Shown here: positions 35,153 to 36,600 of the stretch, piece after piece
Numbering within the stretch: the first letter of the stretch is position 1
Layout of the letters: every line of letters starts with the position of its first letter
From: Escherichia coli
Lineage (GTDB): Bacteria; Pseudomonadota; Gammaproteobacteria; Enterobacterales; Enterobacteriaceae
Assembly: GCF_044324875.1 (NCBI RefSeq)
Contig: NZ_CP172185.1
Length of the DNA stretch: 64,000 nucleotides
Direction: 5' to 3' (one strand)
The notes under the pieces: generated by a model
Told to the model about the DNA's origin: nothing
The model's input: the letters and a program-made list of their open reading frames with translations, nothing else
The model's database searches: none
Position numbers and translations under genes: made by a program

Positions 35153-36097
35153 ATGAGTCCTGATAATATCAGTTCTGCTGTCAATCGCTTCTCAGGTTGG
35201 CCATCTAATGATCCTCTAAAAAAAGATAAAGAATCAATGACATCACCCATGACTGTGCAAGTAATAAAGATGATTGCCGCCATCCTTGATCCACATCGGA
35301 TAGTCGTTGGAATCGATACACTTTATACAACGCAGCGCGAAACATTTACCTCAGAGAGTCAACAGCTCATTGAATCAGCATTGCAAACACTTCATGTGAT
35401 GAATTTAAATAACCTGGAAACAAATCTCGATGAGGAAGGTCACTATCTGGCTTTTGGATATAACGTTGACACTCCTGACAGAATAACCGTTTCTGCTTAT
35501 AATGAAAAAAAGCCTGGCTGCTATGGTCAATGTCTTTTAATACAGGATGACGAAACAGACTTGTTTAACCTGATAAAAGTTAAAATTTTTGAAGCCAGGC
35601 ATAATTATGTCGCTCAATTGATGAGCGATCCGGGATTTATGTTCAAATTTAGTTATAGCGCTCAACAAAATAGATTAGAACCTCATCTTCTGGTTCCCAC
35701 TTATTTCCCTCTAAAAACAAACGAACCGGTTACGCAAGAGGATGTACTGTTACTTTATCGTTTCTTTAAAATGGATGGTGATTTTAATATATTAACATCA
35801 GATGAATACATGAGTATCATGACACCTCTGATGAAGTGTGAGCGCAGCATCCACGACCACAACAGGTATGTGACGGGCAAAGATACCCTTCTTCTGGACT
35901 ATCCTCCTTCTGGTAACCAGATATATTTCCATATTTTTCCTGACGAATCAGCAACACTAGTCCTTTATTTTTCAAACAATGACATTGAATGTTTCGTCTT
36001 TGAAAGAGATATTCCGAGCCAGTATCGCTTTTTCAAAATGTTTACCAATCTGGCACTGGTTATTGATCAGTTAACCGATGCCAATCAAATACTTTAA
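35153..36097 (+). CDS. Hypothetical protein (314 aa), AT-rich ORFan
   Basis: Long ORF in AT-rich DNA with a GAGG RBS 8 nt upstream; I recognise no family. Confidence 0.6.
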   Translation: MSPDNISSAVNRFSGWPSNDPLKKDKESMTSPMTVQVIKMIAAILDPHRIVVGIDTLYTTQRETFTSESQQLIESALQTLHVMNLNNLETNLDEEGHYLAFGYNVDTPDRITVSAYNEKKPGCYGQCLLIQDDETDLFNLIKVKIFEARHNYVAQLMSDPGFMFKFSYSAQQNRLEPHLLVPTYFPLKTNEPVTQEDVLLLYRFFKMDGDFNILTSDEYMSIMTPLMKCERSIHDHNRYVTGKDTLLLDYPPSGNQIYFHIFPDESATLVLYFSNNDIECFVFERDIPSQYRFFKMFTNLALVIDQLTDANQIL

Positions 36098-36177
36098 TTT
36101 TTATATATTCCCTGTGGCAAATATTGCTAAACAATGCCCGGGGATTAATTTTTATTACTCACGGAAAGATTTAAATA

Positions 36178-36600
36178 ATGATCCCATCTCAAATCTCTTT
36201 CAACACCCTTCCTGTCAATGCAACATACGCTTCAGAGACAACAGTTGACACACAAAAATTCTCTGACATCCTCTACTCAGCGGGGTGTTCCCTAAAGGAT
36301 CTGGCTTATCTGAGCAGATGTCTGGCATCAATACATCCGACTATCGCCAAAAACATTTATGAAACAGAAAATCTCAGCGATCAAAAATTACTACATATTG
36401 ATTGCCGTAGTACAAATGAAATCAAGATAAATATCTTTTTTGGTCAACAACGAGAAGGATTAATTGAAATTAGTTCTGACACAGTCATTTTTTCGATACT
36501 GTCTTCATTGATTGACTCCACCATTTCTAAATTTCAACACCAAAACCCCGTTAACGGTTCTGTAAATCCTGACCTATTGTATGAGGATTATACTGATTAA
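36178..36600 (+). CDS. Hypothetical protein (140 aa), AT-rich ORFan
   Basis: ORF immediately downstream and co-directional with the 314-aa ORF; no recognisable motifs. Confidence 0.5.
   Translation: MIPSQISFNTLPVNATYASETTVDTQKFSDILYSAGCSLKDLAYLSRCLASIHPTIAKNIYETENLSDQKLLHIDCRSTNEIKINIFFGQQREGLIEISSDTVIFSILSSLIDSTISKFQHQNPVNGSVNPDLLYEDYTD

Follow-up and report, generated by a model that had tools for sequence, protein, structure and literature searches.

Results

Two AT-rich open reading frames lie between cydA and glmS

We examined a 64,000-nucleotide stretch of Escherichia coli DNA (NCBI RefSeq assembly GCF_044324875.1, contig NZ_CP172185.1), referred to herein at its whole length as the window, and within it two adjacent open reading frames (ORFs), designated ORF314 and ORF140, that are situated between cydA and glmS. 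These correspond to ECs_0767 and ECs_0766, respectively, of E. coli O157:H7 Sakai, and both are annotated as "hypothetical protein" in all sources. The pair and its spacers are as follows:

35153-36097, + strand: ORF314 (ECs_0767, WP_001305591.1), 314 aa; a 36-kDa acidic (isoelectric point 4.8) soluble protein; the constrained member of the pair
36098-36177, no strand: spacer between ORF314 and ORF140, 80 bp, AT-rich (GC 0.30), with 12 segregating sites and 3 independent indel events among 14 copies
36178-36600, + strand: ORF140 (ECs_0766, WP_000613115.1), 140 aa; a 15.7-kDa acidic (isoelectric point 4.65) soluble protein; the expendable companion
36601-37147, no strand: spacer between ORF140 and glmS, 547 bp, AT-rich (GC 0.318)

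An earlier note on this DNA, made without database searches, had placed both ORFs at exactly these coordinates, and the N-terminus that it quoted for the larger one (MSPDNISSAVNRFSGWPSNDP) is correct. Its impression by eye of AT-richness is borne out by computation: the interval between cydA and glmS spans 2797 bp at a GC content of 0.35 (ORF314, 0.380; ORF140, 0.371), as against 51-53% in the flanks (cydAB, 0.534; the genes from glm to fumD, 0.509) and 0.503 over the whole window. The long AT-rich spacers that it described on both sides are likewise present, with 802 bp on the cydA side (GC 0.333) and the 547 bp listed above on the glmS side. At third codon positions the GC content (GC3) is 0.35 for ORF314 and 0.34 for ORF140, versus 0.51-0.62 in neighboring genes. 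The longest ORF for glmS itself begins at 37085 (170 aa), with RefSeq and the homologues starting at 37148 (149 aa); the upstream extension falls within the AT-rich spacer and is unlikely to be translated.

Such AT-rich DNA would not be expected to yield ORFs of this length by chance. The 2797-bp interval was simulated 2000 times under a first-order Markov model; the longest ORF had a mean of 87 codons, attained at least 140 codons in 26 simulations, and reached 314 in none; the second-longest ORF never attained 140 codons (0/2000). Neither protein contains a signal peptide or a hydrophobic or transmembrane segment.

ORF314 and ORF140 are ORFans of the genus Escherichia

The earlier note had recognized no domain in either ORF and had called both of them ORFans (taxonomically restricted orphan genes), and on both counts our searches agree. 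No significant family was returned by Pfam, NCBIfam, PADLOC, or PHROGs (the best match being to an unnamed PHROG, E 0.056), no PADLOC defence model was matched at E ≤1, and sequence profile searches of the PDB yielded chance matches only, at E values of approximately 1 or above. A word-indexed search of 5.8 billion clusters gave matches from Escherichia only, an exhaustive hmmsearch of 1.84 billion representatives gave only fragments of the same protein, again from Escherichia, and a scan of 100,044 species genomes gave relatives in Escherichia alone. In searches spanning up to ~15 billion proteins, no homologue was thus found beyond this genus, the sequences recovered being those of E. coli, E. 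albertii, and Escherichia sp. ORF314 and ORF140 are therefore taxonomically restricted orphan genes of Escherichia. The phage search produced no match to either ORF, and the plasmid search no true plasmid copy; three matches labelled as plasmids (PLSDB CP088669.1, NZ_CP141089.1, and NZ_CP134663.1) are records of 0.73-4.9 Mb of chromosomal sequence, i.e., mislabelled chromosomes. Two metagenome-assembled genome bins, labelled Collinsella sp. and Citrobacter sp., also contain the E. coli locus at 98-99% identity, probably through mis-binning.

AlphaFold models were poor for both proteins (predicted local distance difference test scores of 43-45), and of these predictions the secondary-structure pattern alone is informative. 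ORF314 appears to comprise two modules, each running from helices through a β-meander to a long helix, and ORF140 appears to comprise one such module. ORF314 is predicted to be a soluble, acidic, two-module α/β cytoplasmic protein. A weak colinear motif recurs at ORF314 residues 38-58, ORF314 residues 227-247, and ORF140 residues 45-72, and is statistically nonsignificant; tests of ORF140 as a paralogue of an ORF314 domain, and of an internal duplication in ORF314, likewise gave colinear but nonsignificant matches (BLASTP E = 2; hhalign p 0.02-0.17).

ORF314 is under purifying selection

Against its E. albertii homologue, which is of equal length and free of stops, ORF314 displays 64% amino-acid and 77% nucleotide identity, with a ratio of nonsynonymous to synonymous substitution rates (dN/dS) of 0.40 at a dS of 0.55; the corresponding values for cydA, which is codon biased, are 0.006 and 0.275. 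Within E. coli, the dN/dS of ORF314 is 0.33-0.37. Polymorphism was assessed in 14 E. coli copies representing 12 haplotypes. Here the segregating sites of ORF314 are distributed 42/16/49 over codon positions 1/2/3, a depletion at second positions, and not a single indel or stop occurs over its 945 bp, as compared to three indel events in the adjoining 80-bp spacer. Across the ORFan pair dN/dS is 0.2-0.4, versus 0.006-0.2 for cydA and the glm genes; ORF314 and ORF140 are genuine coding genes under relaxed purifying selection. At least 12 distinct full-length, 314-aa alleles of ORF314 are held in E. albertii databases, and the type strain of that species carries a frameshifted version (209 + 108 aa). 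In Escherichia sp. MOD1-EC7003, an enterobacterial repetitive intergenic consensus (ERIC)-like repeat is inserted in ORF314 (locus L006, 10349-10469), with the glm operon alongside intact.

The N-terminus of ORF314, which had been described as unstructured-looking, is better conserved than the average of the protein: residues 1-20 are 75% identical to those of E. albertii, compared to 64% for the protein overall.

ORF140 is dispensable

Where intact, ORF140 has a dN/dS of 0.21-0.29 within E. coli, and its segregating sites in the 14 copies are distributed 14/9/26 over the three codon positions. Its retention is nonetheless uneven. A deletion in E. albertii has left ~60 recognizable codons, and in Escherichia sp. 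MOD1-EC7003 the segment corresponding to 36151-36456 is deleted, removing most of ORF140; a second, related ERIC-like copy stands in its place (L006, ~11091-11218). Frameshifts disrupt a further 2 of the 13 other E. coli copies, namely O145 strain RM12275-C1 (at 36281) and strain 6EVA (at 36547), both flagged as such by RefSeq and both among six newly sampled E. coli genomes (L016, L018). In each case one base is missing from a short run of G or C, the two homopolymers being different, and the losses could be either real inactivations or homopolymer sequencing errors; since database protein clusters hold 82-aa and 160-aa variants of ORF140, however, frameshifted alleles do not appear to be rare and at least some are suggested to be real. 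ORF140 is thus dispensable for the retention of ORF314 and has been lost in several lineages. Since ORF314 is found intact where ORF140 is deleted or frameshifted, it cannot depend on ORF140 as an essential antidote or as its dedicated chaperone.

The pair occupies a fixed site in a polymorphic interval

Both ORFs are present in 1134 of 5426 complete E. coli genomes (21%), always between cydA and glmS and in essentially one place per genome. Carriers include O157:H7, O55:H7, O145, O169:H41, and O166:H15, as well as many commensal, animal, and environmental isolates; a few E. coli have insertion sequence IS1 or IS4 elements at the locus. Most E. albertii also carry ORF314, again adjoining cydA, and the segment is accordingly inherited vertically at a fixed site.

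The wider interval between sucD and cydA is polymorphic, with mngRAB in most E. coli, the ORFans together with the glm/fumD cluster in the 21%, and, in some strains, a 371-aa tetratricopeptide-repeat (TPR) protein (e.g., bat strain A3; L012, 8277-9392). In E. albertii it is occupied by the ORF314 homologue and an unrelated 258-aa protein (L002, 11786-12562); the latter has a signal peptide-like N-terminus and no Pfam match, and looks like an outer-membrane β-barrel. The interval as a whole constitutes a multiallelic hotspot without visible mobility genes.

The pair is independent of the glm operon

The glm/mal/fumD cluster, which directs glutamate to mesaconate and citramalate, was found in 26.5% of E. 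coli and also in Klebsiella, Citrobacter, Enterobacter, Salmonella, Yersinia, and Morganella, with a gene list that omits ORF314 and ORF140 (Kronen and Berg 2015; PMC4682846). The earlier note had ventured that the ORFans might have been acquired separately from this metabolic operon, and four lines of evidence uphold that proposal. Firstly, ORF314 adjoins cydA in E. albertii without any glm genes. Secondly, the genera with the glm cluster hold no homologue of either ORFan among the 1.84 billion representatives and 100,044 species genomes searched, so co-occurrence of the ORFans with glmSLE-mal-fumD fails across taxa. Thirdly, composition differs sharply between the two segments. Fourthly, in one comparison, between the window and the L007 haplotype, dS is ~0.15 for the ORFans and 0.02-0.07 for glmS, glmL, and glmE. 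As such, the ORF314/ORF140 segment is independent of the glm operon and is the older resident of the cydA site.

ORF314 possesses a conserved leader just past the cydA control region

Three further features lie upstream of ORF314:

34351-34988, - strand: cydA control region, outside the orphan module, with a perfect FNR box at 34685-34698 and five ArcA-like boxes within 34497-34925
34989-35057, no strand: spacer from the cydA control region to the ORF314 leader, with most alignment columns variable among E. coli, E. albertii, and Escherichia sp. MOD1-EC7003
35058-35152, + strand: conserved leader of ORF314, 95 bp; a Shine-Dalgarno sequence, GAGG (35141-35144), lies 8 nt upstream of the ATG

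Homology on the cydA side stops at 34723 in K-12/mngRAB-type genomes (82% identity, 373 bp upstream of the cydA ATG; L013, 6826-7246), and extends for 638 bp, to 34988, in TPR-type genomes (92% identity; L012, 6901-7589); the E. albertii alignment runs unbroken from cydA through ORF314 to 36203. From these three boundaries, we place the start of the orphan module just past the cydA control region. As cydAB is under the control of ArcA and FNR, the FNR and ArcA-like motifs are assigned to cydA regulation; the distal ArcA-like boxes sit in DNA that is not common to K-12-type strains.

Between the two species, the leader is conserved at ~90% identity and the coding sequence at 77%. A consensus scan of the leader detected no σ70 promoter; with a good Shine-Dalgarno sequence but no such promoter, the leader may function as a regulatory 5′ untranslated region. 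Promoter and terminator scans gave no more matches than shuffled sequence, no terminator-like site was found between ORF140 and glmS, and an Rfam search of the spacers identified no RNA family.

Transcription of the pair is near background

In published RNA sequencing of strain EDL933, covering 11 laboratory, food, and fecal conditions, both ORFans remain near background in every one, with near-zero RPKM (reads per kilobase per million mapped reads). In the same data, the glm genes register at 0-3 RPKM, and cydA at 13-212, apart from a value of 2 in the antibiotic condition. Entries for ECs_0766 and ECs_0767 were not found in the supplements of three other omics studies of enterohemorrhagic E. 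coli (EHEC). Xenogeneic silencing of the H-NS type predicts that DNA of 35% GC will be silent in E. coli; on the grounds of composition and transcription, the ORFan segment is probably silenced by H-NS-type proteins and expressed conditionally.

Discussion

Our analysis points to ORF314 and ORF140 as an Escherichia-restricted, vertically kept, and near-silent orphan pair that is independent of the glm operon, an overall account to which we assign a probability of roughly 65%. Such a pair is an ordinary one, of a type known for a long time in E. coli. A small AT-rich segment bearing both genes would have arrived at the site upstream of cydA ahead of the split between E. coli and E. albertii, and this arrival would have been independent of that of the glm/mesaconate operon now alongside. 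ORF314, with its own conserved leader and ribosome-binding site, would have persisted under moderate purifying selection, while ORF140 would represent a small, acidic, and optional companion in the course of loss. Near-background transcription would then reflect H-NS-type silencing of AT-rich DNA, with expression occurring only under some signal. For ORF314 itself, a selectively maintained, nonessential protein is the best-supported description.

Among the alternatives, the pair could be functionless relics, i.e., once-useful genes that are decaying neutrally and were never meaningfully expressed. The near-zero RPKM in 11 conditions, the high dN/dS, the frameshifted ORF140 copies, the frameshifted E. 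albertii type strain, the ERIC insertion and deletions in Escherichia sp. MOD1-EC7003, and the IS1/IS4 insertions in a few E. coli would all be consistent with decay. Against this, the dN/dS of ORF314 is clearly below 1 in three independent comparisons, the gene lacks indels in 14 E. coli copies next to a spacer that has accumulated three, and a 314-codon frame has stayed open at 23% nucleotide divergence from E. albertii, together with its conserved leader. We thus regard neutral decay of the pair as unlikely, though for ORF140 alone such a fate is plausible.

A more ambitious proposal would make ORF314 the founding member of a new fold and family, either native to an Escherichia ancestor or captured by it, that might act in host interaction or inter-microbial conflict. 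Its expression would be gated by H-NS and possibly coupled to the ArcA/FNR-controlled cydA region, from which ORF314 diverges, with ORF140 as a single-domain paralogue and optional partner; ORF314 might then be, for example, a secreted cargo lacking a Sec signal, or else an antidote or a sensor. We consider this combination improbable as a whole.

Similarly improbable is a pair of the toxin-antitoxin, toxin-immunity, or novel anti-phage defence type; the earlier note had raised toxin/immunity modules as speculation, in part from the large-plus-small arrangement. The two genes are indeed adjacent on the same strand, one large and one small, and they are AT-rich, fast evolving, and free of homologues, all common traits of conflict genes. 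PADLOC nevertheless finds nothing, no toxin or immunity domain is matched, and the genes do not overlap, being separated by an 80-bp gap; moreover, vertical inheritance at a single, fixed site that lacks mobility genes, and the absence of the pair from all other taxa searched, are at odds with such a role. A toxin encoded by ORF314 with an antidote encoded by ORF140 is ruled out, as ORF314 is intact where ORF140 is deleted (E. albertii) or frameshifted (2/13 E. coli copies). The reverse polarity, with ORF140 as toxin and ORF314 as antidote, is a possible arrangement.

The same pattern of loss weighs on the suggestion that ORF314 is an effector of type III secretion and ORF140 the small acidic chaperone dedicated to it, which we judge to be very unlikely. 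Residues 1-25 of ORF314 have a composition compatible with a secretion signal, a nonspecific property, and chaperone-independent secretion of the protein would be possible; however, there is no homology or reliable fold similarity to any known effector or chaperone family. Retention of ORF314 without a functional ORF140 contradicts both the effector/chaperone and the ORF314-toxin proposals, and positive evidence for either is nil.

Least credible is a role for the pair as accessories to, or regulators of, the glm/mesaconate (glutamate fermentation) operon, for although the ORFans lie on the same strand directly upstream of glmS, with perfect linkage in E. coli (1134 genomes with both) and no predicted intervening terminator, ORF314 occurs without glm in E. 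albertii, other genera have the glm cluster without the ORFans (PMC4682846), a 547-bp spacer of 32% GC precedes glmS, GC3 is 0.35 versus 0.51-0.60, and neither protein matches a DNA-binding or enzyme domain.

The picture of a single "glm island" is thus corrected, in that its cydA-proximal 2.8 kb form an older, separate, and Escherichia-specific module. This finding is of limited importance at present; it does remove an attractive but unsupported effector/toxin interpretation, and ECs_0767 provides a clear case of a long orphan gene whose frame has remained intact and selected at a single chromosomal site in more than one species. Being long, selected, without relatives among ~15 billion proteins, and almost untranscribed in the laboratory, ECs_0767 would make a reasonable test case for the maintenance of silenced orphan genes. 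The gene is carried by approximately one-fifth of E. coli, with O157:H7, O55:H7, and O145 among them, and by most E. albertii, so that any function of ORF314 would be relevant to these pathogens.

Comparison with known systems

With the glm/fumD cluster, the ORFans share physical adjacency, perfect linkage within E. coli, and a similar carrier frequency (21% here versus 26.5%; PMC4682846); they differ in being unlisted there, missing from other glm-bearing genera, present in E. albertii without glm, and distinct in composition.

The non-LEE type III effectors paired with class I chaperones in EHEC, enteropathogenic E. coli, and E. albertii (LEE, locus of enterocyte effacement) present the same order of a large followed by a small acidic gene in AT-rich DNA, and several lineages with the ORFans are LEE positive. 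The ORFans, however, have no sequence similarity or reliable fold similarity to such pairs, are not prophage encoded, include a small partner that is dispensable, and also occur in lineages without a known working type III secretion system.

Another counterpart is found in the H-NS-silenced, horizontally acquired AT-rich islands of enterobacteria, for which xenogeneic silencing was reportedly described in 2006 by Navarre and by Lucchini. The ORFan segment resembles these in its 35% GC within a 50% GC genome and in its near-background transcription while the adjacent cydA is well expressed; in contrast to such islands, it is devoid of integrase, tRNA, or repeat boundaries, and the likeness is one of composition and transcription.

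The E. coli ORFans that Daubin and Ochman are said to have characterized in Genome Research in 2004, as fast-evolving, AT-rich genes confined to particular lineages and probably of foreign origin, likewise have homologues only within a narrow clade, a GC3 far below that of the genome, a dN/dS above that of their neighbors, and a position within a variable stretch flanked by core genes. ORF314 departs from that description in having no phage relative found and in its length, 314 aa being much longer than is typical of ORFans; rather than being strain specific, it has persisted at a single site in E. coli, E. albertii, and a cryptic-clade strain.
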